A DNA stretch of 64,000 bases from Candidatus Woesebacteria bacterium (GTDB lineage Bacteria > Patescibacteriota > Microgenomatia > UBA8517): positions 932,145-996,144 of the forward strand of contig CP065002.1 in assembly GCA_016700095.1 (NCBI GenBank). Direction: 5' to 3'. Positions 1-56,557 of the stretch are shown here, piece by piece. The notes below the pieces were generated by a model, which saw only the letters and a list, made by a program, of their open reading frames with translations, was not told the origin of the DNA and did no database searches. The number at the start of each line of letters is the position of its first letter. Positions within the stretch are counted from its first letter, which is position 1. The position numbers and the translations under genes are program-made.

Positions 1-939
1 ACATGATCTCGACAATAACATCTATTTTTGGATACCACCAAAAATTATAAAGATTAAATAAGTTAATAATAGACATAATAACCAGCGTTTTTATATATTT
101 TCTGTTGATTCCGGCAATAATTGTAAGCGGTACAAAAACGGGATATATATATCGTTCATGCATATTTGTCAAAAGCATGAAACCCGAAAAAGAAACAACC
201 AATAGTGCCATGACAAGCGATTTATGGGAGGTGTCTTTCACCAAAGAAATACTTACTACTATATAAGATAAGAGAAATAATGCATTGCCCCACATTTCAT
301 ATGAATAGATAAAGAAGATATCTGAATTCGGACGTTCGTGTATCCCGGTTAAGAAAGCCCATAAATTAAATGCGTTCGCAGTGATTACATGCAACTGATG
401 ACTTAGTACTTTATCAACATAAATACTATATAGCCAGGTAAATGAATCTAGCTTTGCAAACGGATAAGTTAACATAAAAATCGCTACAAAACATATTAAA
501 GCAGTAATTAAATAATGTTTAATTTTGTATTTGCCATGTAATGCTACGATGACATAAATCGGTATATAAATTGCCAAAGATAATTTTATATATAAACAAA
601 TAGCATAAAGAAGGGCTGAAGTGGTCAGTTTTTTTCTCATCAAAAAATAAAACGATGCAATTGCAAGAAAGTTTACAATCGCATCCGTTTGTCCCCAGAC
701 GGCTGAGTTATACCATATAACTGGATTTAAAAGAAATATTAACGAAGATAATTTTGCTATTTTTTCATTCTTGCCAATAAGTAGAATTATTTTAGATATA
801 AAGTAAGCAATTCCAAAGTCTGCAAGAATTGACGGCAATTTAAGCAAAGCCGGATACAAATTTGTTTCTGAATATGAAACGATAATTGACGGAAACAACG
901 AAATATTTATATTTATTATCCACAATAAATTAAAAACCA
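1..939 (-). CDS. Polytopic membrane protein, probable GT-C-type glycosyltransferase. Partial: the N-terminus is at 939 and the C-terminus lies beyond the window start.
   Basis: Hand translation of the minus strand gives an open frame from ATG 939..937 to position 1 with no stop (MVFNLLWIININISLFPSII...NPVIWYNSAVWGQTDAIVNFLAIASFYF...TNMHERYIYPVFVPL...). It has multiple hydrophobic helices and an acidic loop motif. It is absent from the ORF track because it runs off the edge. Confidence 0.5.
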
Positions 940-1219
940 TTTCATAAATTTTGCGAATCAAAGCAAAAATATATATTGTTCCGGGTGGTTGGTTGGGCCA
1001 AGTAAAATTCCACACATTTGAATCCGGAGCGTAAAATTGTTGTGGGCCATATTGATAAAATCGTATTCCCCAATCAACATGATTATTGAGATCTCCATGC
1101 CAGTATATAAAAGCAAGGACAAGTCTAAATAGTAACAATCCAAGAAGTATATAAACATACTTACTGATAAATATATTTCCGATAAGTTTAAAGTTAATTT
1201 TTTTCATGTATGTTAATAA

Positions 1220-3004
1220 TTATTTTTTTTCAAAAAGATAAAAAGCAGGCAACCCGGACGGGTAAGTAATCGATTTAATTAAAGTCAAATCTCCGGGAGT
1301 TCTGTCGGGTTCTTTTATCAGATTTATACCCACTTCTTTTTCGCTAGATAACACCAGTACTCCTTTTTCCAAATTTTTTCCCCAGTCATAAAGTTGTCCT
1401 TGGGGTGATGTAAAATAGTACTTGTCAATCATTGTTATCCTTCCATACCTCGGGTCATCAATCCAATTTGAATCCGGTTTAACATTTTGCCATCTCACCG
1501 GATCGTAGTTCATATATGCGGCAAAAAATGTCCACGCGGGTTCACTAGCCATCGTAATAAGCACTTCATTGTAATTACTTTCCAATTCTTTAACCGATTG
1601 AATCGCTTCTTTATATCCTGCATGCCACCATCTCTCGCTGTACCAAGGATTCTGCGTCCAATAGTTTTGTTGATAAAATATGAAATTAATAGTTAGGAGT
1701 GTGGCGTAAAACGAAGTGAATACTATTTTTGTATTTCTATTTAAGGTAGTGACAAAGTAAACCAGTCCATAGGAGATAAGAAATATCATCGGAGGTAGAA
1801 TTACTATCAACCGAGTTGCGTGTCTACCACCTTCTCTGGTTATCGCAGATGGAATTACCCCCAATACTAACCACAAAGCGATAAGCAGTTTATTCTTTCT
1901 TTCTTTCTTGTTACCAAAAAAATATATAAGTCCTAAAATAAGTGCAATAGCTTCAACTTTGTAAAATTGACCTATTCCTTCTATTGAATGCCTCAAATTG
2001 AAATCTCCTTTAATAAATAGAAATTCACCTGAAAATGATTCAAAATAGTTTTTCAGAATTCTTTGTCCCCAAAAGGTGTATTTATTGTAAAACAGCTTGT
2101 CGGAAAATGTTGGAGTCAAGCCAATTCCCATCTCTCCTCTAAATCTCGCGGCTTGCTCTCTTTTGACACCAACTTCCGGTTCCCTAGTTGGATCCGAAAA
2201 TACACTAATGTATCCAAAACGCTGTGTCCCGCCGGAAAACAAAGTTGCGTAGGTAGTGATAGAACCCATAATCAAAACTACGGCACAAGAAGCAACAATA
2301 TATTTTTTTACACCTTTATTTAATTTGTAATGGGTAATATTTTTGTCTTTGTTGAAGAAAAAAAGTGCAATTATTTCTTTTCTCCATATTAGAAATAGTA
2401 AAATTAATAGAATTAGTGTAAACAATTTCGCCGTACTGTAAATAAGGGGTGTGGCAATCAGTAGAGCAAGCGAAACACTAAAATATTTTACTTTCACAAA
2501 GGATTTAAAAAAGAAATACAGCCCAAATAGATAAAACATAATTAACATTGTCACTTCAAATGCCGCACGAGAATATTGTATATGCCAAGGTGAGATCCCT
2601 AAAAATAATGCACTAAGCAATGCTGTCACTTCGATAACTTTAGGATTATCTTTGTTGATCGAGTGTGTCATGAATTCACGTACAAATAGATACATACCGA
2701 GTACCCCCAATATTCCAAATACTGCTGCCGGTAAACGCACTCCCAGCGGCGTTATGCCAAATAGTGCTACAGTCGGTATTGTTGAATAAATAAAAAGTGG
2801 TGTTCGCCATTCGGCAAGAGACTGAAAATTAGCAGGGAAATAATTTCCGGAATAATCTTTACCCGTTTCAATGAAGCTAAATGCGTGGTATCCGACATCA
2901 AGTTCATCTCCAAACAAAGAAACTGGAACCTGTGATAGGTTCCATAATCTCAATATCGAAGAAACAAATAATATTAATATCAATACCTTGATTGTATTTT
3001 TCAT
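1220..3004 (-). CDS. GT-C membrane glycosyltransferase, ArnT/PMT (COG1807, GT39/83)-like, DE-motif subfamily.
   Basis: 594 aa. The N-terminal loop LWNLSQVPVSLFGDELDVGYHAF carries the DE motif typical of ArnT/PMT enzymes. About 11 TM segments are followed by a soluble C-terminal domain (WHAGYKEAIQSVKEL...). Confidence 0.8.
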   Translation of the reverse strand: MKNTIKVLILILFVSSILRLWNLSQVPVSLFGDELDVGYHAFSFIETGKDYSGNYFPANFQSLAEWRTPLFIYSTIPTVALFGITPLGVRLPAAVFGILGVLGMYLFVREFMTHSINKDNPKVIEVTALLSALFLGISPWHIQYSRAAFEVTMLIMFYLFGLYFFFKSFVKVKYFSVSLALLIATPLIYSTAKLFTLILLILLFLIWRKEIIALFFFNKDKNITHYKLNKGVKKYIVASCAVVLIMGSITTYATLFSGGTQRFGYISVFSDPTREPEVGVKREQAARFRGEMGIGLTPTFSDKLFYNKYTFWGQRILKNYFESFSGEFLFIKGDFNLRHSIEGIGQFYKVEAIALILGLIYFFGNKKERKNKLLIALWLVLGVIPSAITREGGRHATRLIVILPPMIFLISYGLVYFVTTLNRNTKIVFTSFYATLLTINFIFYQQNYWTQNPWYSERWWHAGYKEAIQSVKELESNYNEVLITMASEPAWTFFAAYMNYDPVRWQNVKPDSNWIDDPRYGRITMIDKYYFTSPQGQLYDWGKNLEKGVLVLSSEKEVGINLIKEPDRTPGDLTLIKSITYPSGLPAFYLFEKK

Positions 3005-3057: not shown

Positions 3058-4797
3058 TTACCAATATCTTACCGACTCGCTTGGTAGCAGTGCTTCATTA
3101 AATGAAAGATCGGTCTGCACCATATAGTGTAGTGTACTTGGTAAATCCTGTGTAATTCTTTCGGAAAAGGGAACAAATTCCAATAATAAAAATGCAGGAA
3201 CACTATCATTGAAAGTAATTACTTGATGTAATATTGCATTTTGAGGAATTTCATTTCCCCTGCAAACGTACAATACATGCGCCTTTCCTATTTTGGGACA
3301 TGCGACATCCATTTTAAAGATAATATTTTCGTATCGTTCAACTCTTTCCCAAACACCGGGATTTTCTTTCACAATCACCGACTTTCGAACAAATTCTTCT
3401 GGATGTACTTTGTTGTAAAACAAGAAAAATATGTAAGGATCGCCACCGATAACAACATTTTCATAAGACGACATTTGCCTTACACTGGAAACCATTTCCT
3501 TCATTCCCCCATCCTCATACCACGGCCTATGATAAACATCATGAATGCTAAATTGATGCCAAAAATATGCGAAGTGAGAAAATATTACTAAAAACATTGT
3601 CAGAAATACCAATCTTCGACGAACCCAATTTTTTCCTTTGGCAATTTCATACAAGTGATAAAGTCCGCATCCGGAAAGAATTATAAAGGCAGGTAAACTT
3701 ATTAACGCCCTAACCGGATTTGGGGTTTCTATTGTAAGAGATGAAGGAAGTAAGGATACTAATATCCAGAAATAGATAATATTTTTGTAATTTTGTTTAC
3801 TTGTCGATAAGTAAACAATACCCATAAACATCGTAAGCACTTCAAAGAAATAGTATTGCCCTACACGCGGGATGGAATATTTTGGCATATTGGGATTTCC
3901 ATCTAAAAACATATATTCAAACGAAAGGTGCTCAAAATAGTTTTGTAAAACATCAAATGATTTGATGACAAAATCACTATGAATAACTTCAGCCAATAAA
4001 AGTTTATTCCCTGTCAAAACCCACGAATCTTCGAGTAAAAGTTCGTTCCTGGTAAACTCAGCAGCTCTTTGATTTTTCCCAAACACCATAATGTCATTAG
4101 CCCGAACACGACTTCTGATATCTATAGACAAGAAAACTCCCAAAACAATTATTGAGATTATAAATAACGATATTACTTTTTTCGTTTTCACTACCTTTCT
4201 AAAAACAAAAACGTACATAATGGGAAGAAATGTCATTAGAAAAACTCGTGTTGATGAATATGTCAACATTGCCAAAAAGAACATAACGCTTGCCGCAATC
4301 AGAACTTTGGGGCGTTTATTTTTTGAGTAATTTATTACAAAAAGTATTCCCAGTGATACCAAGGTCGTCGCCAAATTAGACTCAAATGCTTTGCTGGAAA
4401 ACATTATTCCATAAGGAGATATTGCGGCTAGTAATGCCGATGCAATTCCGATATTTTTCTTTTTTGTTATCGCAAACGCCAGAAAATAAATTACGATAGG
4501 AAGAAAAGCACCAGAGACGATAGATACAAATCTCGTTGAAAATTCATTTAAGCCCAGTATTGATACAGGTATCGCTGTAAAATAGGCATACACCGGATAT
4601 TTATAATCTCCAATGCTCGGAAAATACAGTGGAAGTTTATTTCCATATTCATCACTCAGATTATGCGATAGCGAGTATCCATAGTAACCAAACGCTGCCT
4701 CATCGCCATCAAACCCGCGTTGAAGAATCGATGCGCCTGACATCCTAATCATCAATCCCAAAAAGGTAATCCAAAATAAAACAACTTTTGTATTCAT
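3058..4797 (-). CDS. GT-C membrane glycosyltransferase, ArnT/PMT-like, DE-motif subfamily.
   Basis: 579 aa. Loop GFDGDEAAFGYYGYSL. It is polytopic, and its C-terminal domain (EDGGMKEMVSSVRQMSSYENVVIGGD) is paralogous to that of 1220..3004. Confidence 0.8.
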   Translation of the reverse strand: MNTKVVLFWITFLGLMIRMSGASILQRGFDGDEAAFGYYGYSLSHNLSDEYGNKLPLYFPSIGDYKYPVYAYFTAIPVSILGLNEFSTRFVSIVSGAFLPIVIYFLAFAITKKKNIGIASALLAAISPYGIMFSSKAFESNLATTLVSLGILFVINYSKNKRPKVLIAASVMFFLAMLTYSSTRVFLMTFLPIMYVFVFRKVVKTKKVISLFIISIIVLGVFLSIDIRSRVRANDIMVFGKNQRAAEFTRNELLLEDSWVLTGNKLLLAEVIHSDFVIKSFDVLQNYFEHLSFEYMFLDGNPNMPKYSIPRVGQYYFFEVLTMFMGIVYLSTSKQNYKNIIYFWILVSLLPSSLTIETPNPVRALISLPAFIILSGCGLYHLYEIAKGKNWVRRRLVFLTMFLVIFSHFAYFWHQFSIHDVYHRPWYEDGGMKEMVSSVRQMSSYENVVIGGDPYIFFLFYNKVHPEEFVRKSVIVKENPGVWERVERYENIIFKMDVACPKIGKAHVLYVCRGNEIPQNAILHQVITFNDSVPAFLLLEFVPFSERITQDLPSTLHYMVQTDLSFNEALLPSESVRYW

Positions 4798-4835: not shown

Positions 4836-6308
4836 TTATATTGTTTTTTTAGCTCTTCTCATCTCAACTTCTAATTGACCAGACTGATAAGTATCAATTA
4901 ACTCGGAATCCTTTTTATATTCACCGTACCAATTATCTTGATGTACCGGAATAAACAAATTCGGTTCGATTAAAGTAAAGTAGACGTCAGTTTTTTCTCG
5001 TACCGGTAATCGGCCGTGTGTATTTTTGCCATACCAACGAAACATATATTCCCACATTTCTTCTTTCCAATAGGGAACAGAATAATAATTGTAACTAAAA
5101 TAATTTCCATTGCTGTTAATGTAAGTCCAATCAATAACATTTTTTAAATCGCCTAAATATGTCCTTTGCGCGTTGTAAATAAAAGTTGGTTTATTGGCTA
5201 ATATATTATTTTTGTAAACCCAAACACTGCATACTATTACCAACACATAGACAGGAAATAGTTTGAGATTTATTTTGTTTTTATCCATATTCCAAACAAG
5301 CAGCGCAATTAATACCGGTAAAAATACTGGGATAGTTATAAAGAAATGTCTAAGCGGAACAATGCCGAAACACAAAAAAAATACCAAAGGTGAAAGAGAT
5401 AGAAAAAGCGTTGCTAATACATGTCTATTGATTAAATACTTTCTAGAAAAAACCACAACAGTCACGACAATAACCAGAAAACTAAAACGCGGAGATAAAG
5501 TATAAATATTATCAGCTACTTCTTCGATAAAAGTATAAAAAGAACTTAATCCTGTTGATCCAACACCCCCGCCCGAGAAATAACCCAGAAGCGCTTTCGT
5601 CATAAGAAAATCATTTTTAATTTCATAAATGCCATATGTTGTAAATACACAAGGAACACTCAAAGAAATTGCCAATACTTGCTTAAGGCGTAACTTTATT
5701 TTTTCCACACATATGAAGCCGACTATTCCGGGTAATAACGACATTCCGACGACCTCGTGAAAGTTAAGTATTAATCCCCAAAAGATAACTACACCAAACA
5801 GGTATTTCCAATTGGTTTTAGATTTTACCAAGAAATAATAAAGTAGAATTGCGCAGGCAGGAATTAATGTCGTGTTAGAAAGCCAACGAGCATACACAAT
5901 TGATGAATAATTTACTACATACAAGACTGTTGACAATCGTGCGATTTTTTCATTGAAATGATTCTTTACAGCCAAATATAAAAATAATACAGAGAGACTA
6001 TTAATTGCAATTAAGCACATCTCTATTTTGTACGGATCGCCGTCAAAAATAAAATAAAATGGAAGTAAAATATACAAATAAATTACACCGTGATATATAC
6101 CTGCTATATCGGTTGGAGGACCAAGCAGTTTCAAGTCGCCTCCGAGTATTTTTTCAACTTCAAATAAATCTCTTGCCTGTTCATACCCAAAAAACAGATA
6201 CTTATTTAATAAAAATGACCGGAAAACTAAAGCTATCGCAATCATACACACAACAAAAAGTATGTCACTACTTTTTTTCCGTTTAACTTTTTTAATCAAG
6301 TCTTTCAT
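4836..6308 (-). CDS. GT-C-like membrane glycosyltransferase, second subfamily with the F-G-[YW]-[DE]-Q-x-R-D motif.
   Basis: 490 aa. Motifs FFGYEQARDLFEV, LLGPPTDIAGIYHGVIY and YARWLSNTT. The conserved aromatic C-terminal module is PYWKEEMWEYMFRWYGKNTHGRLP...LIEP. Confidence 0.7.
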   Translation of the reverse strand: MKDLIKKVKRKKSSDILFVVCMIAIALVFRSFLLNKYLFFGYEQARDLFEVEKILGGDLKLLGPPTDIAGIYHGVIYLYILLPFYFIFDGDPYKIEMCLIAINSLSVLFLYLAVKNHFNEKIARLSTVLYVVNYSSIVYARWLSNTTLIPACAILLYYFLVKSKTNWKYLFGVVIFWGLILNFHEVVGMSLLPGIVGFICVEKIKLRLKQVLAISLSVPCVFTTYGIYEIKNDFLMTKALLGYFSGGGVGSTGLSSFYTFIEEVADNIYTLSPRFSFLVIVVTVVVFSRKYLINRHVLATLFLSLSPLVFFLCFGIVPLRHFFITIPVFLPVLIALLVWNMDKNKINLKLFPVYVLVIVCSVWVYKNNILANKPTFIYNAQRTYLGDLKNVIDWTYINSNGNYFSYNYYSVPYWKEEMWEYMFRWYGKNTHGRLPVREKTDVYFTLIEPNLFIPVHQDNWYGEYKKDSELIDTYQSGQLEVEMRRAKKTI

Positions 6309-7785
6309 AAAAGTTATCTATGTTTATATTATCCGTATTTTTATCTGTTGTTCTTTTCTCAACGGTTAAACGACCAAACACTTTATAATCGACTAAATTG
6401 GAATTTCTGTTTAAATCTTTATACCAATTTAGCGACAGTTGTGGTTGGGAATCGTCCGGTTCAATTATCACATAAAATATCTTGGTATCGTTAACGCTAG
6501 GTAGATATCCGTATTCGGTTTGACCTTTCCATGTAAATAAATATTCCCATGCTTCTGATTTCCAATACGGTACGGTAAAGTAATTGTATTTAAAATCGTT
6601 CCCCGCAGAGTCGGAAAATATATAATCAACTATTTTTAAGTCATTCTTTAAATAGGTATATTGAGCATAGTGTAAAAAGTTTTCATTGTGCAAATATATT
6701 TTATTAATCGTTGTTTTAGTATTAGATATAAAAAGCATAAGGATTACAAAAGTCGTAACCACTTTGCCCCAACCTTTCGTTGTCGAATACAACGCACCAA
6801 TCACAGCAAAGAAGAAAAGATGTGTTAGCTGTAAATAGTGTTGATTTGGATCAACTTTGAATATCCAAAAAAATAAAGGAGATGAAATAGTAAATGCGAA
6901 AAATAAAGTAAACCATTTTTCTTTTCTATAAAATATAACCGCTATAATACACAAGGCAACGAGAGCCACCGTTAACCAAATATTGTTGTAAAACGTAAAT
7001 TTTTCAAATTCACTAATGACAATATCTATGATTTTATTTCTATCTCCCCCACCACTTCCTTGATTTATATATACAAGTAGTGATCGAGCCATAATATAAT
7101 TATTCCTTACTTCAAACAACAAATATGAAGAAAACAAAGTTATCAGCAATGCAATATTAGTCAGGACGAGTTTTGCTGAATATTTTATCTTTTGAAGACA
7201 TAGAGCAACAATTACAACCGGCAAAATTGAAAGTGCAACAATCGATTGTAAATGAAAAATGATTGCCCAAGAAAACGTGACTAATAATAGATAGTATCGA
7301 TTATCTTTCAATTTAGAGAGTGCATAAAGTAACAATCCAGCAAAGGCGGGAACCAAATTGGGATTTGATAACCACCTCGAATAGATTATTGAAATATAAG
7401 ACACAGTTAGCAATAAGGAGGATATGACACCTGATATTTTTCCGAATATATTCTCGAGTGCTTTGTAATAAAACAGGATAGAGATACTATTTATAACAAC
7501 CAATATTAACGCGACAACATAAGGATTACCCGAAGCAACAAGTGTAAGTAAAGCTAAAATGTAATAATAAATAACTCCATGGAAATACCCCGGGATACTT
7601 GTTGTCGGACCGATCAAAGCAAAATCTCCATGTATTATGTCGTTTGCCGCCAAAAAGTCTCTCCCCTGCTCCCATCCAAAAAATAAATTGTCACTTAGTT
7701 TTAATGTGCGCAAAAAAAAAGCTAAAGTTATTAGACCAAGCAAAAATACCTTAGACAGATTTATGTGTTTTTTGAGTTTTTCCAC
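6292..7785 (-). CDS. GT-C-like membrane glycosyltransferase (DQxRD subfamily), paralogue of 4836..6308.
   Basis: 497 aa. Motifs FFGWEQGRDFLAA, LIGPTTSIPGYFHGVIY and YSRWLSNPN. C-terminal module PYWKSEAWEYLFTWKGQTEYGYLP...IIEP. It overlaps the downstream gene by 17 nt. Confidence 0.7.
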   Translation of the reverse strand: MEKLKKHINLSKVFLLGLITLAFFLRTLKLSDNLFFGWEQGRDFLAANDIIHGDFALIGPTTSIPGYFHGVIYYYILALLTLVASGNPYVVALILVVINSISILFYYKALENIFGKISGVISSLLLTVSYISIIYSRWLSNPNLVPAFAGLLLYALSKLKDNRYYLLLVTFSWAIIFHLQSIVALSILPVVIVALCLQKIKYSAKLVLTNIALLITLFSSYLLFEVRNNYIMARSLLVYINQGSGGGDRNKIIDIVISEFEKFTFYNNIWLTVALVALCIIAVIFYRKEKWFTLFFAFTISSPLFFWIFKVDPNQHYLQLTHLFFFAVIGALYSTTKGWGKVVTTFVILMLFISNTKTTINKIYLHNENFLHYAQYTYLKNDLKIVDYIFSDSAGNDFKYNYFTVPYWKSEAWEYLFTWKGQTEYGYLPSVNDTKIFYVIIEPDDSQPQLSLNWYKDLNRNSNLVDYKVFGRLTVEKRTTDKNTDNINIDNFYERLD

Positions 7786-8579
7786 TTTGTTCCCGACCAG
7801 ATGATGAAATTGAATACATAATGAATTAGTGTTCCGTGATATATTTTACTCCCGGGAATTAATTTTCTCCATGCATCGGGGTCGTTCTTTTTATCCTTTG
7901 TACTTGCGCCATGATAATGTATAATCTGCGCCTTCGGTAGATAAAAGACTTTCAATCCTTTTTTTCTGACCAGCCGACAATAGTCCAAATCTTCGAAATA
8001 AAAAAAGTATTTTTCATTTAGCTTACCCGCAGACTCAAGAGCTTGTGGGGTAATTAGCATTGCAGCTCCTACAACTGCATCGACTTTTGTTGGCTTCATC
8101 GATTTTGGAGCAAATTTATCCAACTCATTTCCACTACCCAACCAATATTGTTTGATGGCAAGAGGTATTGTCGGAAGGTTCATGCATGATGCTTGTACAC
8201 TGCCGTCTTTGTTTAGAAGCTTGGCACCAACCACACCGATTGTCTTGTCAGTTTCGGCAAATCTAACCATTTCCTGCAGTGCGTCTTTTTTTACTAGTGT
8301 ATCCGAATTTAGAAGTAATATATATTTACCACGTGATTTTGATATTCCTTGATTATTTGCTTTACTAAAACCCGCGTTGGTTTTATTTGCGATTAATGAA
8401 ATATTACTTTTGTTAGTTGCAACCAACTTTTCGAGAAGTTGAACACTGCCGTCATGTGAATAATTGTCAACTATTATTATTTCAAGATCCAGCGAACCCT
8501 TTGTTTTTTTGATTGATTCAATACACGAAAGTGTTAGGTCGCGTGTGTTGAAACTTACTATTATTATTGATAGATCCAT
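7761..8579 (-). CDS. Family 2 glycosyltransferase (GT-A fold).
   Basis: 272 aa. Motifs IIIVSFNT...IIIVDNYSHDGS, LLNSD (DxD-like) and YFEDLDYC. Confidence 0.85.
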   Translation of the reverse strand: MDLSIIIVSFNTRDLTLSCIESIKKTKGSLDLEIIIVDNYSHDGSVQLLEKLVATNKSNISLIANKTNAGFSKANNQGISKSRGKYILLLNSDTLVKKDALQEMVRFAETDKTIGVVGAKLLNKDGSVQASCMNLPTIPLAIKQYWLGSGNELDKFAPKSMKPTKVDAVVGAAMLITPQALESAGKLNEKYFFYFEDLDYCRLVRKKGLKVFYLPKAQIIHYHGASTKDKKNDPDAWRKLIPGSKIYHGTLIHYVFNFIIWSGTKWKNSKNT

Positions 8580-9473: not shown

Positions 9474-9479
9474 CTAATT

Positions 9480-10136: not shown

Positions 10137-10260
10137 ATTATAGCAAGGAAAAATGTTTACGTCTGTATATATTCCGTAACATTTTACTCTGCCTGTTCTA
10201 ATATATATTTTTCATCCTTTTATGACACAAAAGGTTTACTGTCAAGACAAAAAATACAAT

Positions 10261-14494: not shown

Positions 14495-14562
14495 AGAATA
14501 TGTACTTCGTAAAGAGATGCGTATTAATCGCTATTTAAGAAATTTTTTAAGTTAACATCACA

Positions 14563-15354: not shown

Positions 15355-15355
15355 G

Positions 15356-16285: not shown

Positions 16286-16292
16286 TGACTGT

Positions 16293-36800: not shown

Positions 36801-36801
36801 A

Positions 36802-38789: not shown

Positions 38790-38794
38790 AACCT

Positions 38795-39478: not shown

Positions 39479-39480
39479 AC

Positions 39481-48302: not shown

Positions 48303-49382
48303 TTAAACTCTTACTTTGGATTTTTCTCCAATGAACAATTTTATCCAATGAGTGGGATCTTCCAAATCATAAACTTCGGCTTCGTTGCCAATCATACTTT
48401 CGTTAATTGGTTGTTTGACGTTTATTATTCTTACATTTTCCATCAATACACTATCTTCTAAATGACTTTTTTCAATTACACATCCACTGCTAATAGATGA
48501 ATATGGACCAATATACGAATCACTTATTTCAACATTGTCGCTTATTGACACAGGGCCTTTTATTTCTGAATTTCTAATTTTACAGTTTTTTCCCACACTC
48601 ACTCTACCGATTATTTTCGTACTCCTGTCGATTTTTGACCCCATATCATCTACCAGGTATTCATCTAACAAATATCTATTGGATTCTATCCAGTCATTAA
48701 ATTTACCAGGGTCTAACCACTTTCCTTTATACTCAATTACATCGACCCGATATTTATTGTCAATTAACCATTGGAAAACTGATGGTATTTCATATTCTCC
48801 ACGCGCTGATGGTACTATCTTGTTTTTTCCCGTGAAGCATTTGAAAACATTATGGTCACCAAAATATAATCCGGGGACAGCAAAGTCGTGTGGGGAATTC
48901 TTTGGTTTTTCCACATATTTTATAAGTCTGTTTGTTTTCGAGAAATAAGGGACACCAAGACGGGAGTTTTCAGGATGATGTACCATAGTCACCATGCCAT
49001 TTGGCTTGTTTTTCCGAAAGTAGTCAGTAACTTCTTTAATACCTTTTGTAAAAATATTATCGCCTAAATGGTATACGAAACTATCACCATTCAATTTCTC
49101 TTCACATACTTGGACAACGTTTGCCAGTCCAATTGGTTTTTCTTGTAATACGTAGGTAAATTTCGCTCCCCACTTACTTCCATCACCTAAATACGACTTC
49201 ACCACATCTAGCCAACCGGGGTTATAGGTAATTAATATATCTTTTATGTCTGCTTCGACAACAGATTCAATTGGATAGAAAATCAATGGTTTATTGGCTA
49301 CTGGAATAAAATGTTTATTGGTAGAAAAAGTCAGAGGTTGCATTCGCGTTCCTCGTCCTCCTGTAGGTATTATTGCTTTCAT
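48303..49382 (-). CDS. rmlA: Sugar-1-phosphate nucleotidyltransferase, long form with a C-terminal left-handed beta-helix (glucose-1-phosphate thymidylyltransferase-like).
   Basis: 359 aa. The N-terminus KAIIPTGGRGTRMQPLTFSTNKHFIPVANKPLIFY matches the GxGxR nucleotidyltransferase signature. The C-terminal hexapeptide-repeat region is (VSIGKNCKIRNSEIKGPVSISDNVEI). It heads the rml gene run. Sugar and nucleotide specificity is not provable from sequence. Confidence 0.75.
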   Translation of the reverse strand: MKAIIPTGGRGTRMQPLTFSTNKHFIPVANKPLIFYPIESVVEADIKDILITYNPGWLDVVKSYLGDGSKWGAKFTYVLQEKPIGLANVVQVCEEKLNGDSFVYHLGDNIFTKGIKEVTDYFRKNKPNGMVTMVHHPENSRLGVPYFSKTNRLIKYVEKPKNSPHDFAVPGLYFGDHNVFKCFTGKNKIVPSARGEYEIPSVFQWLIDNKYRVDVIEYKGKWLDPGKFNDWIESNRYLLDEYLVDDMGSKIDRSTKIIGRVSVGKNCKIRNSEIKGPVSISDNVEISDSYIGPYSSISSGCVIEKSHLEDSVLMENVRIINVKQPINESMIGNEAEVYDLEDPTHWIKLFIGEKSKVRV

Positions 49383-49632: not shown

Positions 49633-50463
49633 ATGACTAAAAAAAATATCGGTATTCGCCCCACCATGTTACTGTGGTGTGTGCCCCCACTTGTGGCAAT
49701 TATTTTATTGATCGGTTTTTTACTAAATTCTGGAAGTGGTATGAAATTTCCTCGTGAAATTGTACTTTCCGAGACAACCGCAAATTTTGAGGATTTTCCT
49801 AAGATTAAATTAACGGGTCATGGAGCAATTACATTTTGGTTCGATGATGCATGGAAATCGCAATACGATGTTGCATTTGACATACTTGACGAGCGACATA
49901 TTAACGCAGCGCTTGCCGTACCAACAAAATTGGTCGGATTTGACGCTTATATGGATTGGGATCAAGTAATTAAATTGCGCGAGAAGGGGTGGGAAATTAC
50001 TTCTCACAGTAGATCTCACGACTGTAGTACCGACAACTTGGACTTCAATTCATTGAATGAGGAGATTGAAGGATCGAAAAAAGATCTCGAAGCCCATGGT
50101 ATTCGTACAAATATCTATCTTCCTCCATGTGGTATTACATCTAAAATATCAAATAGTTTGGTTTTGTATCACTACGAGTATCAGAGATTAATCGAGGCGG
50201 GATTTAACGACATTCCCGTTGAAGATCCCTTTGGAATAAAAATCCAAGAAGTCGGTAGACACACTACGGTAAGTGATGTCGAAAAATGGATTAGGGTTGC
50301 TCAAAAAGACAACAAGTGGTTGATATTAATGTTCCATCAGATCGATAACGACGATACAAGATACGGTATAGATCCAGTCACATACAGAAGCATAGTTGAT
50401 CTGGTTGATAATTCCAATATTCAAATAGTGCTACCTACCCAGATACTTGAAAAATCCATATGA
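49633..50463 (+). CDS. Polysaccharide deacetylase (NodB-homology / CE4 domain), membrane-anchored.
   Basis: 276 aa. An N-terminal TM helix. CE4 motifs ITFWFDDAW, HSRSHD and LPPCG. Confidence 0.8.
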   Translation: MTKKNIGIRPTMLLWCVPPLVAIILLIGFLLNSGSGMKFPREIVLSETTANFEDFPKIKLTGHGAITFWFDDAWKSQYDVAFDILDERHINAALAVPTKLVGFDAYMDWDQVIKLREKGWEITSHSRSHDCSTDNLDFNSLNEEIEGSKKDLEAHGIRTNIYLPPCGITSKISNSLVLYHYEYQRLIEAGFNDIPVEDPFGIKIQEVGRHTTVSDVEKWIRVAQKDNKWLILMFHQIDNDDTRYGIDPVTYRSIVDLVDNSNIQIVLPTQILEKSI

Positions 50464-51536
50464 CCAAACGACAAGTATGTATTGTTATTGCTGCCTACAA
50501 CGAAGAAAGGGTTATCGGGAAAACTCTCAGAAGATTGTCAAAGATAATACCTGCAACCGATATTTATGTGGTTGACGATGGAAGCGTAGATAAAACCGCT
50601 CAAATAGCAAGAAAATATACACCCAATGTTCTTACAAAAGCTAACAGTGGTAAAGGCAGTTCATTGCAATACGGAATAAAGAATTTTCGGCTTTGTCAGA
50701 AATATAAATATATTACCCCAAACGACGCCGACTCAATCTTACATCCAAAGTTTTTTGACAAAATTATTGAAACTTTTGAGATGGATAAGGATAGAAAAAT
50801 AGCCGGTATCGCAGGAAAAGTAGTTGGTAGCAATATAAATTGGTTAACCGCCTATCGACTCTGGGAATATGAAATAACGCAATTAATACACAAATCTGCA
50901 CAGTCTATAACTAACTCAATAACCGTATGTCCTGGACCATGCAGTGTTTTCCGATCAAGCATCTTTTACAAAATTAATTACCCCAAGGGTACAATCACCG
51001 AAGATATGGATCTAACATTTTACATTCATAGAAAAAAACTTGGTACGATTGTTTATGAACCGCAATCACTCGCTTACACTCAAGATCCCAAGAATTTAAA
51101 AAGTTACATACAACAAATAAACCGTTGGTACACAGGTTTTTGGCAATGTGTAATCAAACACAACATCCCCACAGGAAGACAACTATTGGATCTGGAAGTA
51201 TCTTTGCTGTGCATGGAGGGGATATTTAGCGGACTGTTTGTTTTATCATCGCCTTTACTTGTATTTCTGTTTATTGGACATCATAATTATTTATTTCTGT
51301 ACGCTATTATTACCGATTTTCTTCTTTTTGTTCTACCCTCTACTTTATATGTGGCAAGTAAATTCGCATCCCCAAAAATACTTCTCTATATTCCGCATTT
51401 TTATTTCTTAAGAGCAGTTAGTAGCTTGATATTTATCAGAAATTATGGGATAGTATTCTTGGGTAGAGATAGAAAACTTAGTGCGAGTTGGGATACTGCT
51501 CGTTATTCATTTCAGAAATTCAGTTCAATTCATTAA
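50460..51536 (+). CDS. Processive GT2 beta-glycosyltransferase (NodC/IcaA/PgaC/chitin-synthase-like) with C-terminal TM helices.
   Basis: 358 aa. Motifs VCIVIAAYNEERVI, VVDDGSVDKT, TEDMDLT and the Q-x-x-R-W motif (QQINRWYTGFWQ), followed by four TM helices. The start overlaps the deacetylase stop (ATGA). Confidence 0.8.
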   Translation: MTKRQVCIVIAAYNEERVIGKTLRRLSKIIPATDIYVVDDGSVDKTAQIARKYTPNVLTKANSGKGSSLQYGIKNFRLCQKYKYITPNDADSILHPKFFDKIIETFEMDKDRKIAGIAGKVVGSNINWLTAYRLWEYEITQLIHKSAQSITNSITVCPGPCSVFRSSIFYKINYPKGTITEDMDLTFYIHRKKLGTIVYEPQSLAYTQDPKNLKSYIQQINRWYTGFWQCVIKHNIPTGRQLLDLEVSLLCMEGIFSGLFVLSSPLLVFLFIGHHNYLFLYAIITDFLLFVLPSTLYVASKFASPKILLYIPHFYFLRAVSSLIFIRNYGIVFLGRDRKLSASWDTARYSFQKFSSIH

Positions 51537-51794: not shown

Positions 51795-52067
51795 TTAAAA
51801 TCTAAAAAGAACCGACAGAACTATCATCAGTCCAAGAGTTGCTATCGCCAAATATTCAACAAGAATTGAAACATCTAAGTCTTGGTGTAAGTAATGATGT
51901 ATAACTCCCCATACAAAATAAGAAAATGCTACCGCTACCGCCAGTGATGCCTGAAACATTCTATCGTAAGAAAAATGAATAATCCCAAGGGAACCTGACA
52001 AAATAATACCAACAAGGGGTATGTAATGATTCACGTGTCTTGAAACAATCTTGATTTTACTCATCAT
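51795..52067 (-). CDS. Small integral membrane protein (hypothetical).
   Basis: 90 aa with three hydrophobic helices, located directly downstream of the CAP-domain gene on the same strand. Confidence 0.4.
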   Translation of the reverse strand: MMSKIKIVSRHVNHYIPLVGIILSGSLGIIHFSYDRMFQASLAVAVAFSYFVWGVIHHYLHQDLDVSILVEYLAIATLGLMIVLSVLFRF

Positions 52068-52075
52068 TAGTTAGC

Positions 52076-53002
52076 TTAAAGAATCTTACCGGCTTTAACA
52101 ATAAGGACAATTACAAATATCATTCCCAAAAAGGTCAAATGTGCAATCAGTCTACCGCTTTTTCTGGGAACTTTTTTGTGCAATACAATAGCACTATCAA
52201 CGACCATCACAACTAACAGTAGTCCGAGAATAGTAAGTGAAATAGTTTTTGTTGCAGAAAATGGTGAAATTTCATAGGATGAAGACTTGCTGTTCATTGC
52301 GGTTTTTCCGTTTTGAATATCTCCTACAACAACCGGCTTCTCCTTACTTACAGTTGGTGTCACCGGTTGCGTCGTTGGCGTGACTACTGTTTCATCTACG
52401 GTATAAGCCGCGGCCACAGGAACACTTGTCTTGTCTTTGGCACTCCTGGTTCCAAAAAATTGGACAACAATAGTTGTATCTACACCATCAATATCACCCT
52501 CAACAACACCTATTCCAATTTCTTCGTACTTTGACGAAAGTAAATTTTCCCGATGTGAAGGCGATGCCATCCAGGCTTCAACCGCTGCTGTCGGGTTTGA
52601 GAAATCACGCGCCAAATTCTCGCCCGCATATCGATACACATAGCCCTCGTCTATGAAAAATTTCCATGGTTGCGTACCATCCGGCGAAACATGCGCCCAA
52701 TAGTTTTTCGCCAACATATCTTGCCCCTTGAGATACGCAGCTTTATTTAGTACCTGACTAACTTCTAAGTTACCCACACCATTTTCCCTTCTTTTTTGGT
52801 TTGTAAGATTTACTACTTCATCTATTGAAATATTCGCAGCATAACCAAGGACTTTAACACCCTGCCTTGGAATAATTGTCAAAGCCAGCTGGGATAAGAG
52901 TACGCAAAAACCTATAAGAAAGAGGGTTGAAGAGTGTAGCAATTTAGCCTTGTGATTATTTGAATGCCTGGGAATTATCAAATGCGACAAATATGTAAAC
53001 AT
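52076..53002 (-). CDS. CAP/SCP (YkwD-like) domain protein with a Thr/Pro-rich linker and a C-terminal TM anchor.
   Basis: 308 aa. An N-terminal TM/signal segment. CAP motifs NQKRRENGVGNLEVSQVLNKAAYLKGQDMLAKNYWAHVSPDG and SPSHRENLL. The linker is VTPTTQPVTPTVSKEKP, and two C-terminal hydrophobic helices follow. Confidence 0.7.
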   Translation of the reverse strand: MFTYLSHLIIPRHSNNHKAKLLHSSTLFLIGFCVLLSQLALTIIPRQGVKVLGYAANISIDEVVNLTNQKRRENGVGNLEVSQVLNKAAYLKGQDMLAKNYWAHVSPDGTQPWKFFIDEGYVYRYAGENLARDFSNPTAAVEAWMASPSHRENLLSSKYEEIGIGVVEGDIDGVDTTIVVQFFGTRSAKDKTSVPVAAAYTVDETVVTPTTQPVTPTVSKEKPVVVGDIQNGKTAMNSKSSSYEISPFSATKTISLTILGLLLVVMVVDSAIVLHKKVPRKSGRLIAHLTFLGMIFVIVLIVKAGKIL

Positions 53003-53234: not shown

Positions 53235-54989
53235 ATGCAAATTCATATGGCTAATAATTATTTGAAATATATCAACAATTCCCGGAGATATCGTGTTGCG
53301 GGAATACTTTATATTGTTACAACCGTTGTATATCTTTTTTGGCTTAATGGTCATCTTAACTACCAGGATTGGTGGCTAAGTTTGCCTTTCTTTTTTGCTC
53401 AAGCGTATACAGCTATGCTTGTGACGTTGTCCGTTATAAACAACTGGAAAGCAAAATATGAAACCGTTAGACCCACACTGCCAACCAATTTACCATGTGT
53501 AGCAATCGTCGTACCTGTTTACGAAGAGCCTATCGACATCATACAACGTACTCTCAAATCTTTACTACATATATCATACGACAAGGACTTGGTAATCATT
53601 GTTAGTAAGGGATATAACGGCAATTTCAAAGAAACTGCCTATACCCAAAAGCTTATAGATATGGTCAATACTGTTTGCAGTGATCACGCTAATATTTCAA
53701 CAAAATCCGCTAAACATCAAAGAAAAAATATACATCTACTATTTTCCAATCAACAAAATAATGCAAAGGCGGGAAATCTCAATGCTACGCTAGATTTCTT
53801 GGCTAAAGAATATCCATGGATTGATCATGTATTAACACAGGATGCTGACGAAATAGCATATTGCGACTTACTAAAAGCCACGATGGGATATTTCAACGAT
53901 CCCAAAATTGCATATGTTCAAACAATTAAACAAGCAGATGTCAATAAACACGATCCTTTCGGCAACCATGATCTGATGTGGTACTGTCGTACGGCAGCAA
54001 GTAGAAATGCCGATAATGCAATGTTTGCTTGTGGGTCAGGAGTAGTGTGGAAGATTAGCGCCCTTCGCTCAATTGGTGGCTTTGCTACATGGAATTTAGT
54101 TGAGGATCTTACTACCTCATATAACTTACTTGCCGCGGGCTGGAAATCTTCCTACCATTACGAAGCATTGTCTAAAGGCATCGCACCGGAAGATTTACCT
54201 AATTTTATTAAACAAAGAAGTACTTGGGCACTTGACAACATGAGGCTATTCTTTTGGGATAATCCATTATTCAAAAAAGGGTTAACTTTGAGGCAAAAAC
54301 TTCATTTTATTGAAACACCGTTATTTTATCTAAACGGATATGCAGGTATCGCATTTGTACTTACAGTCTCAGCGAGTTTATATTTTCGTGTTTGGCCAAC
54401 TACCTCCAGTGCCTTAACACACGCTTTATTTATCTTTCCTTCATTTATAACCATGGAGATATATTTTTTATTGTTAGCAGACACAATTCCGTTTAGAAGA
54501 ATTAGACAGTTTTGGGTTGGTCTTGCCCCCGTTTTTATTATCACATCATTACAAGCTTTGTTGTACGGTCCCAAGAAAAAACCTACTTACCAAGTAACCA
54601 GAAAAATAAATAAAGTTGGTAACTATTTACATATGGTGTTGCCGCAATTAGTGTTACTTGTATTAATTGTAGTCGCTCTTCTAAAAAATATATTGGGCAC
54701 TCCCTTGTATTCCGGTTTTGATTGGGCTGCGCTTTTTTGGGGTTTTTATCTGGCTTCTTTTTATCTACAAATTATTCGAGTGTCGATGTGGAATTGGATA
54801 CCCGACATAAGTATCGAGGCTATAACAATTGGTGGTTTGCCTAATTGGTTTCCAAATTTTGACAAGCTGAAAAACATATTTGGATCTACTCCATTGATTA
54901 ATCGTAGTCACGGATTCAACACACCAGACAACACTCACCATGTACCTTACACGAAAAGTACTGATTATCACTCAAATAGTAACAAGTAA
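53235..54989 (+). CDS. Cellulose-synthase-like processive GT2 (CesA/BcsA-like catalytic subunit, no PilZ domain).
   Basis: 584 aa. Two N-terminal TM helices. Motifs VAIVVPVYEEP, QDADE, FACGSGVVW, VEDLTTSY and QRSTWALDN (a QxxRW-like motif), followed by six C-terminal TM helices. Confidence 0.75.
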   Translation: MQIHMANNYLKYINNSRRYRVAGILYIVTTVVYLFWLNGHLNYQDWWLSLPFFFAQAYTAMLVTLSVINNWKAKYETVRPTLPTNLPCVAIVVPVYEEPIDIIQRTLKSLLHISYDKDLVIIVSKGYNGNFKETAYTQKLIDMVNTVCSDHANISTKSAKHQRKNIHLLFSNQQNNAKAGNLNATLDFLAKEYPWIDHVLTQDADEIAYCDLLKATMGYFNDPKIAYVQTIKQADVNKHDPFGNHDLMWYCRTAASRNADNAMFACGSGVVWKISALRSIGGFATWNLVEDLTTSYNLLAAGWKSSYHYEALSKGIAPEDLPNFIKQRSTWALDNMRLFFWDNPLFKKGLTLRQKLHFIETPLFYLNGYAGIAFVLTVSASLYFRVWPTTSSALTHALFIFPSFITMEIYFLLLADTIPFRRIRQFWVGLAPVFIITSLQALLYGPKKKPTYQVTRKINKVGNYLHMVLPQLVLLVLIVVALLKNILGTPLYSGFDWAALFWGFYLASFYLQIIRVSMWNWIPDISIEAITIGGLPNWFPNFDKLKNIFGSTPLINRSHGFNTPDNTHHVPYTKSTDYHSNSNK

Positions 54990-54991
54990 CC

Positions 54992-56557
54992 ATGGAACTG
55001 TCATTTAACAAAGTAAAATTTCGCATCACTAAACTTAAGATTGCTTACCTAAGCTTAATATCCGTATTCTTGCTTTATTTGATTAAAGATATGCAGTTTA
55101 ATACGGCATTTGTCGACGAAGCAATATATGCAACTATCGGTGAAGAGGTACTTAGAAAAATATACTGGGAGAATGCAATTTCATGGATGGGTGGATCTTA
55201 TCTCTATCCAGTTATTAGCGGGTTTATTAATCGGTATTATGGACTGGAAGGAATAAGAATGTTCTCAGCATTATGCGTATTAACTGCGGGTGTTTTGTCC
55301 GCTAAATTAGCTCGACTGCTTGGCGGAAAATATAGTTCTCTTGCGGCGCTTATCTTTTTTTTATTTTCTTCACTTTCTCTAAACTTGGGACAACTTGGAA
55401 CTTACGACACACCTAGTCTTATGTGCATGTCGATTTCATTTTATTGCGTAATTACCTCCAGATATCACATTGGTAAACGTAAGTTTTTACTACTTATCTT
55501 ATCATCCTTCTTTATGACACTTGCTGTTCTTAGCAAGTATGTAGCAATTTTATTTGTACCCACAATTATTTTAGCTATTATTCCGACTGTAAAAAATACA
55601 ACAGAGTTTATAAAACATATTCCCAAACTTACTGTATATATTTTGTGTTGGTCTCTTCCATTTACAGCACTAGTGGGTTGGTATGTATTTGTCAACTACT
55701 CACAAGTAATTAATTTTTTTGAAGGCGATTTCTTTTCTGAGCCTTCAAACTTACTAACCATATTTACAACGCTAATACAATCAACTAACTTCATAATCAT
55801 TGGAGCAACCACTTCCCTAGTATATGCTTTGCTTAAAGTTAAGGGGGAGAAAAAATGGTTAGTTATAGTATTGTTTATCGGAGGACTCGCTCCAATCTTA
55901 TATCACCTATCTTCGATGAATATTAGATCTTTTCCAAAACATCTCGTTTTTACTTTATTCTATTGGGTGCCATTAACAGGGTGGATATTAAACAAAATTT
56001 ATACCAAATTAACTCAAGTTTCCAATAGTTTTACTTTTATTAATAATTCTTATCAACTGATTTGGACAACTTTATTTATTCTTATTATCACCAACACATG
56101 GTTAAGTTTTGCCAAACACTGGCAATTCCAAAGATCATGGCCAAGCAGTACTGCAACATTAGAATACTTGAGAGAGCATAGGAAAAATGATGATAAAATA
56201 TTTGCCGAAGCTGCAGCCATTTATAAATTTCATATGTTTGAAGGTTTTGAAGATCCATCCGCGTGGCCTTCCACTTGGCATTTAGAATACAAAGGCAAAT
56301 TTGGCGTAGACGCAATGAAGATGGCTATCAGTGAAAAAGCATTCGACTACATAATATTAAATGATTATTTTACCAGTGAAATTAACCGCGAAATTAAACC
56401 TGTTATTAATGAATATTATGAAGTAGTAGCTTTCGACGATTACAAGCTTAGCGGTGTACACACCATAACAACGCTTGTTTGGCAACCGAAAGATGATACT
56501 AACATACTGGTCCTGAGTGAAAATAACGACTGGTTTTCATATTTTTCCAAACCTTAG
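54992..56557 (+). CDS. GT-C membrane glycosyltransferase (ArnT/PMT-like, DE motif).
   Basis: 521 aa. The N-terminal loop is AFVDEAIYATIGEE. About 12 TM helices and a C-terminal soluble domain. It starts 3 nt after the cellulose-synthase-like gene. Confidence 0.65.
   Translation: MELSFNKVKFRITKLKIAYLSLISVFLLYLIKDMQFNTAFVDEAIYATIGEEVLRKIYWENAISWMGGSYLYPVISGFINRYYGLEGIRMFSALCVLTAGVLSAKLARLLGGKYSSLAALIFFLFSSLSLNLGQLGTYDTPSLMCMSISFYCVITSRYHIGKRKFLLLILSSFFMTLAVLSKYVAILFVPTIILAIIPTVKNTTEFIKHIPKLTVYILCWSLPFTALVGWYVFVNYSQVINFFEGDFFSEPSNLLTIFTTLIQSTNFIIIGATTSLVYALLKVKGEKKWLVIVLFIGGLAPILYHLSSMNIRSFPKHLVFTLFYWVPLTGWILNKIYTKLTQVSNSFTFINNSYQLIWTTLFILIITNTWLSFAKHWQFQRSWPSSTATLEYLREHRKNDDKIFAEAAAIYKFHMFEGFEDPSAWPSTWHLEYKGKFGVDAMKMAISEKAFDYIILNDYFTSEINREIKPVINEYYEVVAFDDYKLSGVHTITTLVWQPKDDTNILVLSENNDWFSYFSKP

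Follow-up and report, generated by a model that had tools for sequence, protein, structure and literature searches.

A dense array of GT-C genes in a Woesebacteria genome

We analysed a 64-kb window, that is, the whole stretch of DNA presented here, from a 1.27 Mb contig of Candidatus Woesebacteria bacterium, and found 15 polytopic proteins resembling glycosyltransferases of the C superfamily (GT-C) spread over 56 kb of it. All GT-C counts given below were taken within this window, and genes are named g plus the coordinate of their left edge (g2 for 2-1207, and so on; Table 1). Fourteen of these genes fill 22,696 of the first 37,584 nt (60%), a clustering that is far above chance. Between them, Pfam searches placed nine family 2 glycosyltransferases (GT2), one GT4, one methyltransferase and one Wzx flippase, the window as a whole holding 11 GT2 and one GT4. 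Several GT-A genes overlap or nearly abut a GT-C gene (7761/6292, 33210/31585, 13457/11932, 27236/25639 and 53235/54992). The GT4 gene and the three GT2 genes at 13457-17192 are found in identical order in the related loci L003, L006, L008, L009 and L015 and would form a conserved cytoplasmic glycan-building block; the nearby methyltransferase is a candidate for glycan methylation. A complete deoxythymidine diphosphate (dTDP)-rhamnose set, RmlA-D, was detected by Pfam at 45.5-49.4 kb, and two GT2 enzymes, g7761 and g15356, had a rhamnosyltransferase as best NCBIfam match (for g7761 a rhamnosyltransferase subfamily, below its cut-off). The window is AT-rich and even in composition, with a GC content of 33-42%, and no tRNA genes were found in it.

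A preliminary description of this DNA had reported at least 11 GT-C genes and had offered four further large polytopic proteins, together with a partial gene at the window edge, as possible additions. The 14 complete open reading frames (ORFs) it listed are all present in position and strand; the partial gene, which it had placed at 1-939, covers 2-1207. The density it described holds, but the count was too low, as 15 proteins were recognised by hhalign and hallmarks, and the four polytopic proteins and the partial gene all entered the network at a probability of at least 90%.

Table 1. Coordinates of the GT-C genes and associated glycosylation genes in the window (aa, amino acids; nt, nucleotides; TM, transmembrane)
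Feature	Position	Strand	Evidence and remarks
GT-C-like g2, GT87/PIG-U-like	2-1207, cut by window edge	-	402 aa in window, 452 aa in full on the longer contig
GT-C g1220 (FGDELD motif, C-terminal class A)	1220-3004	-	hhalign 100% to g3058, 94-99% to subfamily 2
GT-C g3058, PMT_2 type (GDE motif, C-terminal class A)	3058-4797	-	PF13231 44.6 bits
Subfamily-2 GT-C g4836 (FGYEQARD, class B)	4836-6308	-	PF13231 34.8 bits
Subfamily-2 GT-C g6292, modelled member	6292-7785	-	PF13231 28.0 bits; 25-nt overlap with upstream GT2
Two GT2	7761-8579 and 8580-9473	-	PF00535 97.9 and 84.3 bits; kept upstream of subfamily-2 GT-C in related loci
S-adenosylmethionine-dependent methyltransferase	9480-10136	-	Methyltransf_11 82.5 bits; kept in L006 and L010
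Subfamily-2 GT-C g10261	10261-11802	-	No Pfam match; hhalign 100%; L006 orthologue 63% identical
Subfamily-2 GT-C g11932, extra paralogue relative to related loci	11932-13515	-	PF13231 27.6 bits
GT4	13457-14494	-	Pfam match
Three GT2	14563-15354, 15356-16285, 16293-17192	-	Pfam; g15356 best match rhamnosyltransferase
774-aa GT-C g17247	17247-19571	+	PMT_2 at residues 312-463, 29.5 bits; ~7 extra TM helices before PMT_2
GT-C g19624, 577 aa	19624-21357	-	41-nt overlap with Wzx; structural model
Wzx-type (MOP) lipid-linked glycan flippase	21317-22819	-	Polysacc_synt_3 (PF13440) 177.8 bits
GT-C-like 600-aa g23670 (HDD motif after TM1)	23670-25472	-	hhalign 96.6% to g3058, 96.0% to g6292
GT-C g25639, PMT_2 type (FADEAIY)	25639-27219	-	PF13231 32.7 bits; hhalign 98.7% to g3058
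GT2	27236-28078	-	PF00535 78.8 bits; directly upstream of GT-C g25639
Subfamily-2 GT-C g28737 (class B)	28737-30320	-	PF13231 21.6 bits, below cut-off; BLASTP E 7e-33 to g6292
Divergent subfamily-2 GT-C g31585 (LGDEGRD)	31585-33228	-	Not class B; 19-nt overlap with upstream GT2
239-aa GT2 g33210, candidate polyprenyl-phosphate-sugar synthase	33210-33929	-	NCBIfam ArnC 73.7 bits
Small 405-aa GT-C-like g34051, without C-terminal domain	34051-35268	+	hhalign 94.2% to g6292
Two GT2, DPM/ArnC/PgfS type (g35589, g36802)	35589-37584	-	PF00535, PF04138; NCBIfam AglJ, PgfS, PpgS, ArnC
RmlD	45549-46454	-	Pfam
RmlC	46451-46900	-	Pfam
RmlB	47017-48021	-	Pfam
RmlA-like	48303-49382	-	Pfam
Cellulose-synthase-like processive GT2	53235-54989	+	CelA 174 bits, below cut-off
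GT-C g54992	54992-56557	+	PF13231 43.4 bits; begins 3 nt after GT2 53235-54989

Fold, hallmarks and subfamilies of the encoded proteins

Seven of the 15 proteins (g3058, g54992, g4836, g25639, g17247, g6292 and g11932) matched PF13231 (PMT_2) above its gathering cut-off of 26.1 bits. The g28737 protein scored below it, g1220 reached 15.5 bits at a relaxed threshold, and g10261, g31585, g19624, g23670, g34051 and g2 gave no match to this family. Family alignments made from orthologues in related loci were compared profile against profile with hhalign, which tied each of the 15 proteins to at least one other at a probability of 90% or higher; the adjacent Wzx flippase, an 11-TM protein that served as control, gave at most 0.4% against all 15. 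For g17247 and g54992 the PF13231 match stands besides the profile links, and g19624, linked at 90.1%, is confirmed as GT-C by its own structural model. In all 15 proteins a Lys/Arg-containing N-terminus leads into TM1, followed within ~5-30 residues by an acidic motif (D/E, DE, DD or HD) that was invariant or almost so within the family alignments. A hydropathy scan revealed 6-13 hydrophobic segments per protein, and 12 of the 15 carry a soluble C-terminal domain of 120-190 aa. Two checks proposed in the preliminary description came out in its favour: no protein fell into a transporter family in hidden Markov model searches, and the basic N-terminus, TM1, acidic first outside loop and number of hydrophobic segments are compatible with a GT-C topology.

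An AlphaFold2 model of g6292, built on an alignment of 30 sequences, attained a predicted local distance difference test (pLDDT) of 91 and a predicted template modelling score of 0.90. When it was compared with the PDB by Foldseek, the 32 best matches were all GT-C fold proteins, namely GT-C enzymes and the GT-C-like PIG-U/GAB1 subunits of glycosylphosphatidylinositol transamidase. ArnT (5f15) ranked first (E 1.7e-6, template modelling score 0.59) in a full-length alignment that included the outer C-terminal domain, with ALG12, AglB, PglB and Pmt4 behind it. Both the g6292 and the g19624 models matched GT-C structures exclusively (ArnT, ALG12, STT3/AglB/PglB, AftA), and a sequence-profile search of the g6292 subfamily (subfamily 2, see below) against PDB sequences returned only a marginal match to TMEM260 (E 0.009). 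A polytopic architecture, an inside N-terminus, the loop-1 acidic motif and, in the models, the three-dimensional fold of the superfamily were all found.

Ten of the proteins were checked in GenBank, where four (g3058, g4836, g6292 and g25639) are named 'glycosyltransferase family 39' and six 'hypothetical', among them g1220, g10261, g19624, g23670 and g31585. With PF02366 (PMT), whose cut-off is 22.7 bits, g3058 and g25639 scored 18.8 and 20.0 bits, and Pfam detected MIR domains in none of the proteins. The GenBank name is therefore a superfamily-level label, and true GT39/PMT membership was rejected. DE-type motifs stand in loop 1 of g1220 (GDELD), g3058 (GDE), g25639 (ADE), g54992 (VDE) and g31585 (GDE), but they are not decisive for GT39 membership because other GT-C families have a DE motif too.

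The preliminary description had sorted its genes into a DE-type subfamily and a second one, here subfamily 2, defined by FG[YW][DE]Q.RD. The motifs it quoted are present in the translations: FGDELDVGY in g1220, FDGDEAAFGY in g3058, FADEAIYVRW and GKQPLFMW in g25639, FVDEAIYATI in g54992 and, for the six genes of subfamily 2, FGYEQARD, FGWEQGRD, FGYDQARD, FDYDQIED, YYDQGRD and LGDEGRD, along with the GP[PT]T..G..HG loop and the [SA]RWLSN[PT] box. Subfamily 2 proved to be a true family, its six members being connected by BLASTP (E 1e-91 to 1e-6, except for the pair g11932 and g31585, which gave no significant match) and by hhalign (90-100%). The DE-type group held in part: g1220 and g3058 are related (BLASTP E 2e-31, 23% identity) and g25639 joins them by profile (96-99%), but g54992 lies outside (2-22%), its hhalign link being to g6292 alone (91%). 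As judged from these sequence comparisons, the DE-type subfamily is a motif class and not a clade.

When the soluble C-terminal domains were compared on their own, g1220 and g3058 formed class A (hhalign 99.6%) and g4836, g6292, g10261, g11932 and g28737 formed class B (at least 97.7%), while the domains of g31585, g25639, g54992, g17247, g19624 and g23670 had no relative in the window. At least eight unrelated C-terminal domain types are thus present, and the comparison indicates a design in which one catalytic membrane scaffold bears at least eight outward-facing domains. Such variety would be expected if every enzyme recognised a different acceptor. The aromatic C-terminal module earlier ascribed to all of subfamily 2 is shared by five of its six members, but not by g31585 (13.8%); the W-x-x-G-x-x-E motif ascribed to the DE-type proteins occurs in g1220, g3058 and g25639 but is absent from g54992, and among these proteins homology of the C-terminal domains is detectable for g1220 and g3058 only.

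Further relationships were seen for individual proteins. Within subfamily 2, g4836 and g6292 are 33% identical (BLASTP E 5e-91), g10261 matches g11932 (E 2e-58) and g6292 (E 3e-36), and g31585 matches g28737 (E 1e-24) as well as g1220 (E 7e-6). The g1220 protein has a weak Agl23 match and an L006 orthologue 66% identical to it; g17247 was linked to g3058 at 94.6% by hhalign and has an L010 orthologue with 39% identity. The g2 protein lacks a large C-terminal domain; its Pfam matches to GT87 (22.1 bits) and PIG-U (18.9 bits) are both below cut-off, its hhalign score to the g3058 family is 96.8%, and its orthologues occupy the same position in L003, L006, L008 and L009. A weak PTPS_related match (19.5 bits) was obtained for g23670, which has relatives in L009, L012, L019 and L021; its longest ORF encodes 600 aa and the GenBank protein has 563 aa, the annotated start codon being different. 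The g34051 protein weakly matches the AZOBR_p60025 'cell surface glycopolymer formation' family. In L009, a GT2 (50% identical to 7761-8579) and a subfamily-2 GT-C (36% identical to g6292) are fused in frame at positions 9194-11398, where a sequencing frameshift is possible. At 53235-56557, a synthase-type GT2 is paired with a PMT_2 enzyme, which is an unusual pairing.

Conservation of the array, the g19624 family and the flanking genes

The 'local expansion' of which the preliminary description had spoken turned out to be a misleading term. No pair of paralogues in the window exceeds 33% identity in all-against-all BLASTP, orthologues in related Microgenomates loci are 38-69% identical, and 9 of the 15 genes have an orthologue elsewhere that is clearly closer than any paralogue in the window. 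The order of the array is conserved across Woesebacteria and other Microgenomates (L003, L006, L008, L009, L010 and L015) and runs from Wzx and g19624 over three GT2, a GT4, a g10261-like gene, (a methyltransferase) and two GT2 to a g6292/g4836-like gene, g1220, a g2-like gene and four further g1220/g3058-like GT-C genes. More distant Patescibacteria loci are equally dense, 11 of 15 ORFs being GT-C-like in L019 (Pacebacteria). Because the paralogues are so divergent and the orthologues are syntenic and closer, the array is ancient and lineage-typical and did not arise by recent expansion at this place. Extra duplications, themselves old, are suggested only by g4836/g6292 and g10261/g11932, two pairs that each stand where related loci have a single gene. 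Patescibacteria-type GT-C arrays were also met in L011, L012, L014, L018, L020, L021, L023 and L024, whose records bear the names 'uncultured Gammaproteobacteria', 'Pseudomonadales' or 'Limisphaerales', probably through mis-binning or mislabelling of contigs from metagenome-assembled genomes.

Of all the GT-C genes, g19624 is by far the most conserved. Its homologues number more than 1,500, the top 120 all at least 49% identical, and those with a source name were all 'hypothetical' and all from Patescibacteria or Microgenomates. In an exhaustive profile search the family was discrete, with 1,592 clusters at 50% identity, 803 of them with E 1e-30 or better. No Pfam match was obtained for g19624 even at E 5, PF02516 (STT3) included, and a profile search against PDB sequences found no oligosaccharyltransferase and nothing meaningful. 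The AlphaFold model (pLDDT 87), which matched GT-C structures only, had STT3 and AglB ranked first by Foldseek (~E 1e-8), and in the structure comparison its C-terminal domain matched that of AglB-S2. The WWDXG motif is absent from g19624 and from 31 family members, indicating that g19624 is not a canonical oligosaccharyltransferase; with PF02516 unmatched as well, canonical membership of that enzyme group (GT66) was rejected. Going by the model, g19624 represents a highly conserved Patescibacteria family whose C-terminal domain appears to resemble that of oligosaccharyltransferases.

Among the 150 best family representatives, about one in four has an extra N-terminal secreted domain of ~450 aa (P0149, P0153, P0166, P0187 and others), many family proteins being 1,000-1,160 aa long. 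This domain, which has a weak DUF3863/PDB 3lm3 match and is not present in the window, also occurs as a separate gene beside GT-C genes (L014 8043-9887, L022 8075-9940 and L024 11439-13328). In P0187 (1,639 aa), Wzx, the secreted domain and the g19624 GT-C module are joined in a triple fusion. This fusion and the invariant adjacency of the two genes tie g19624 functionally to the Wzx flippase, and its presumed substrate is the lipid-linked glycan once this has been flipped.

Other genes surround or interrupt the array. A soluble 214-aa protein (28050-28694, -) sits between a GT2 and a subfamily-2 GT-C, and a soluble 193-aa protein is encoded at 44810-45391 (-); neither has a Pfam or NCBIfam match. 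The glycosylation block is flanked at 37650-42313 (+) by a MacAB-like tripartite ATP-binding cassette exporter (HlyD-family adaptor, ATPase and MacB permease), and the same segment holds a PilB-like type II/IV secretion ATPase (360 bits). Apart from the GT-C block, the genes for a polysaccharide deacetylase (49633-50463, +) and a PgaC/IcaA-like membrane GT2 (50460-51536, +) overlap, and together they resemble the synthase-deacetylase pairs of poly-N-acetylglucosamine type. A CAP/SCP-domain protein at 52076-53002 (-), which has membrane helices at its C-terminus and a linker rich in Thr, Pro and Val, precedes a small DUF5656 protein (51795-52067, -). Finally, a sortase (56688-57329, -) adjoins three secreted proteins with signal peptides (57461-58582, 58620-60833 and 60924-62231, all -), rich in Asn/Thr/Gly repeats of the form TG.N.A..NTGG.V, for which no Pfam match and no LPXTG-like motif was found; the first two have a C-terminal membrane anchor and the third has none. 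They may be proteins of the cell surface or of S-layer-like type, and might serve as targets of glycosylation.

A putative locus for cell-surface glycan assembly

We read the window as a core locus of cell-surface glycan assembly, encoding an enlarged multi-component transmembrane glycosylation system; for this outline we estimate a probability of about 0.7, and its details deserve much less confidence. Cytoplasmic GT2 and GT4 enzymes would build a glycan on a polyprenyl carrier from sugars including dTDP-rhamnose, and Wzx, going by its family membership, would bring it to the membrane's outer face. At least three GT2 enzymes of ArnC/DPM/PgfS type would, by similarity, charge polyprenyl phosphate with single sugars. 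Outside the membrane, up to 15 GT-C enzymes with related membrane cores and differing outward C-terminal domains would each draw on a lipid-linked donor, either adding one particular sugar or linkage to the growing glycan or transferring the glycan to its final acceptor. The g19624 protein, presumably coupled to Wzx, would be the best candidate for en-bloc transfer or ligation of the flipped glycan. The analysis shows the GT-C fold and its hallmarks, the conserved gene order and the age of the paralogues; donors, acceptors, sugars and the order of steps are what we infer, not what was observed.

The dependence on polyprenyl-phosphate sugars proposed in the preliminary description fits the neighbouring genes: three ArnC/PgfS/DPM-like GT2, one of them (g35589) with a C-terminal GtrA/DPMS membrane domain (PF04138), and Wzx suggest by context that the GT-C proteins may use a lipid-phosphate-linked sugar donor. 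Synthase candidate of GT-A type, flippase and GT-C are all present and adjacent. The g33210 protein, which also matches the NCBIfam models for PgfS and for dolichyl-phosphate hexose transferase, has relatives adjoining GT-C genes in eight distant loci (L011, L013, L014, L017, L019, L021, L022 and L024). Several points weigh against this outline. All polyprenyl-phosphate-sugar synthase matches of the GT2 enzymes are far below the NCBIfam equivalog cut-offs, which makes the donor assignment weak; g2, g23670 and g34051 draw their GT-C status solely from profile-profile scores of 90-97%; and the TM counts are those of a crude hydropathy scan. The window showed no initiating phosphoglycosyl transferase, Wzy polymerase, chain-length regulator or LCP ligase, and Wzy_C, Bac_transf, Glycos_transf_4 and Wzz had no Pfam match among its 49 ORFs, although such genes could lie elsewhere in the genome; of a Wzx/Wzy-dependent polysaccharide pathway the window thus holds Wzx alone. 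Moreover, a wall polysaccharide, a lipoglycan and a protein are all conceivable as acceptor.

The scheme has a close precedent in the GT-A/flippase/GT-C mechanism established for Gram-positive cell-wall polymers (PMC8035078). In these multi-component systems (CsbB/GtcA/YfhO, GtlA/GtlB, GacI/J/K/L and the Csd pairs; PMC8035078), a GT-A makes the polyprenyl-phosphate sugar, a GtrA- or Wzx-type flippase follows, and a GT-C transfers the sugar outside the membrane; several decorate rhamnose-containing wall polysaccharides, and GT-A and GT-C genes are adjacent, as in our locus. They differ in scale, having 1-3 GT-C per genome, each adding a side-chain sugar, against 15 in 56 kb here. As GT-C outnumber the cytoplasmic glycosyltransferases in the first 37.6 kb, most of the glycan may be assembled, and not just decorated, outside the membrane. 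The structure that subfamily 2 matches best, ArnT (GT83), is likewise a PMT_2 protein in Pfam, and an ArnC-like GT2 is encoded next door; however, sequence identity is ~10%, genes for ArnA, ArnB and ArnD are not in the window, and subfamily 2 has an FG[YW][DE]Q.RD motif and an aromatic C-terminal module of its own. Bacteria of the Candidate Phyla Radiation (CPR) are not known to possess a lipid A-containing outer membrane.

The rival that survives best, although we regard it as unlikely, is that the locus encodes a protein glycosylation machine. Like actinobacterial PMTs, its PMT_2-type enzymes would carry out O-glycosylation of proteins that are secreted or lie at the surface, and g19624 would move the flipped glycan en bloc to pilins or to the Asn/Thr/Gly-rich proteins at 57461-62231, the acceptor being the sole difference from surface glycan assembly. 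The four GT39 names in GenBank, the loop-1 DE motif, which is the PMT signature, and the three secreted, repeat-rich proteins, two of them membrane-anchored, with their sortase at 56688-62231 favour it, but the sub-threshold PF02366 scores, the lack of MIR domains, the missing STT3 Pfam match and the absence of WWDXG throughout the g19624 family members inspected argue against it, and the rhamnose pathway, Wzx and many GT2 are typical of polysaccharide loci.

Also to be weighed, and in our view doubtful, is a lipid-anchored lipoglycan like mycobacterial lipomannan or lipoarabinomannan, in which successive GT-C enzymes would extend a membrane glycolipid outside the cell. The weak match of g2 to PIG-U and to GT87 (polyprenol-phosphate-mannose mannosyltransferases such as PimE) points in this direction, as does the mention, for a different CPR lineage, of genes for GT87 and for phosphatidylinositol mannosides (PMC6031116). 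The mycobacterial and corynebacterial set (EmbA/B/C, AftA-D, PimE, Mpt) likewise consists of many divergent GT-C that draw on polyprenyl-phosphate sugars and act in series, outside the membrane, on a single glycan, and AftA, AftB, AftD, EmbC and PimE are among the structural matches of the modelled proteins, yet the CAZy and Pfam families differ. In mycobacteria the genes lie dispersed in a genome several times the size, whereas ours form one locus. Besides, Pfam found no PimA/PimB-type phosphatidylinositol mannosyltransferase in the window beyond one generic GT4, the GT87 match is below cut-off, and Wzx points to a polyprenyl-diphosphate-linked intermediate and not to a glycolipid primer.

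A comparably speculative extension takes the locus for a bacterial counterpart of the luminal N-glycan pathway of eukaryotes and archaea, in which Wzx would flip the lipid-linked glycan, a dozen dedicated GT-C would elaborate it outside the membrane one sugar at a time, and the g19624 family would transfer it en bloc. That pathway (Rft1-type flippase, ALG3/9/12/6/8/10, STT3/AglB) follows the same logic of cytoplasmic GT-A/GT-B enzymes, a MOP flippase and serial GT-C that each add a single sugar from a lipid-phosphate sugar, and ALG12, ALG9 and STT3/AglB rank high among the structural matches, but the likeness is one of fold and logic only, given that PF02516 is unmatched and WWDXG absent. Were this so, which together with the pathway itself we consider a long shot, the g19624 family would comprise oligosaccharyltransferase (OST)-like enzymes so far unrecognised across Patescibacteria, and the lack of WWDXG would mean a new mode of acceptor recognition.

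A recent, genome-specific amplification, serving for instance to vary antigens or phage receptors, was rejected as very improbable, as was acquisition of the array as a horizontally transferred island: the genes are tandem and co-oriented, and the pairs g4836/g6292 and g10261/g11932 stand where related loci have one gene, but even the closest paralogues are only 33% identical, nine genes have clearer orthologues elsewhere, the order is kept across several Microgenomates, and base composition is even across the window. That the polytopic proteins are transporters or non-catalytic, their motif likeness being compositional, is hardly credible and was likewise rejected, for although 5 of the 15 lack a Pfam match at E 0.01 or better, the Wzx control showed no profile similarity to them and the loop-1 acidic motifs are conserved.

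The enzyme superfamily and the kind of mechanism are known. What appears to be undescribed is the scale of 15 GT-C, the conservation across Microgenomates, the subfamily-2 and g19624 families and the variety of C-terminal domains. In the literature consulted, which was mostly the openly accessible part, we found no description of GT-C arrays or OST-like enzymes in CPR, Patescibacteria, Microgenomates or Woesebacteria; copies of dolichol-phosphate mannosyltransferase are mentioned in passing for Peribacteria (PMC4736985), as is a GT87 enzyme for a Saccharibacterium (PMC6031116). Subfamily 2, with its FG[YW][DE]Q.RD motif and aromatic C-terminal domain, and the g19624 family are now defined families for biochemistry; the locus supplies at least eight unrelated acceptor-side domains on a single catalytic scaffold, and natural GT2-GT-C and Wzx-GT-C fusions reveal partner proteins. 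Annotation can be improved at once, since 6 of the 10 proteins checked are 'hypothetical' in GenBank. The genomes of CPR/Patescibacteria are tiny, and the lifestyle assumed for these bacteria is attachment to host cells, so that surface display is central to their biology. Here, ~23 kb in one block of the contig are given to 14 outward-acting GT-C enzymes in a layout kept across Microgenomates, and such an investment, together with the shared layout, implies that the surface glycan is complex and conserved and takes shape largely outside the membrane.

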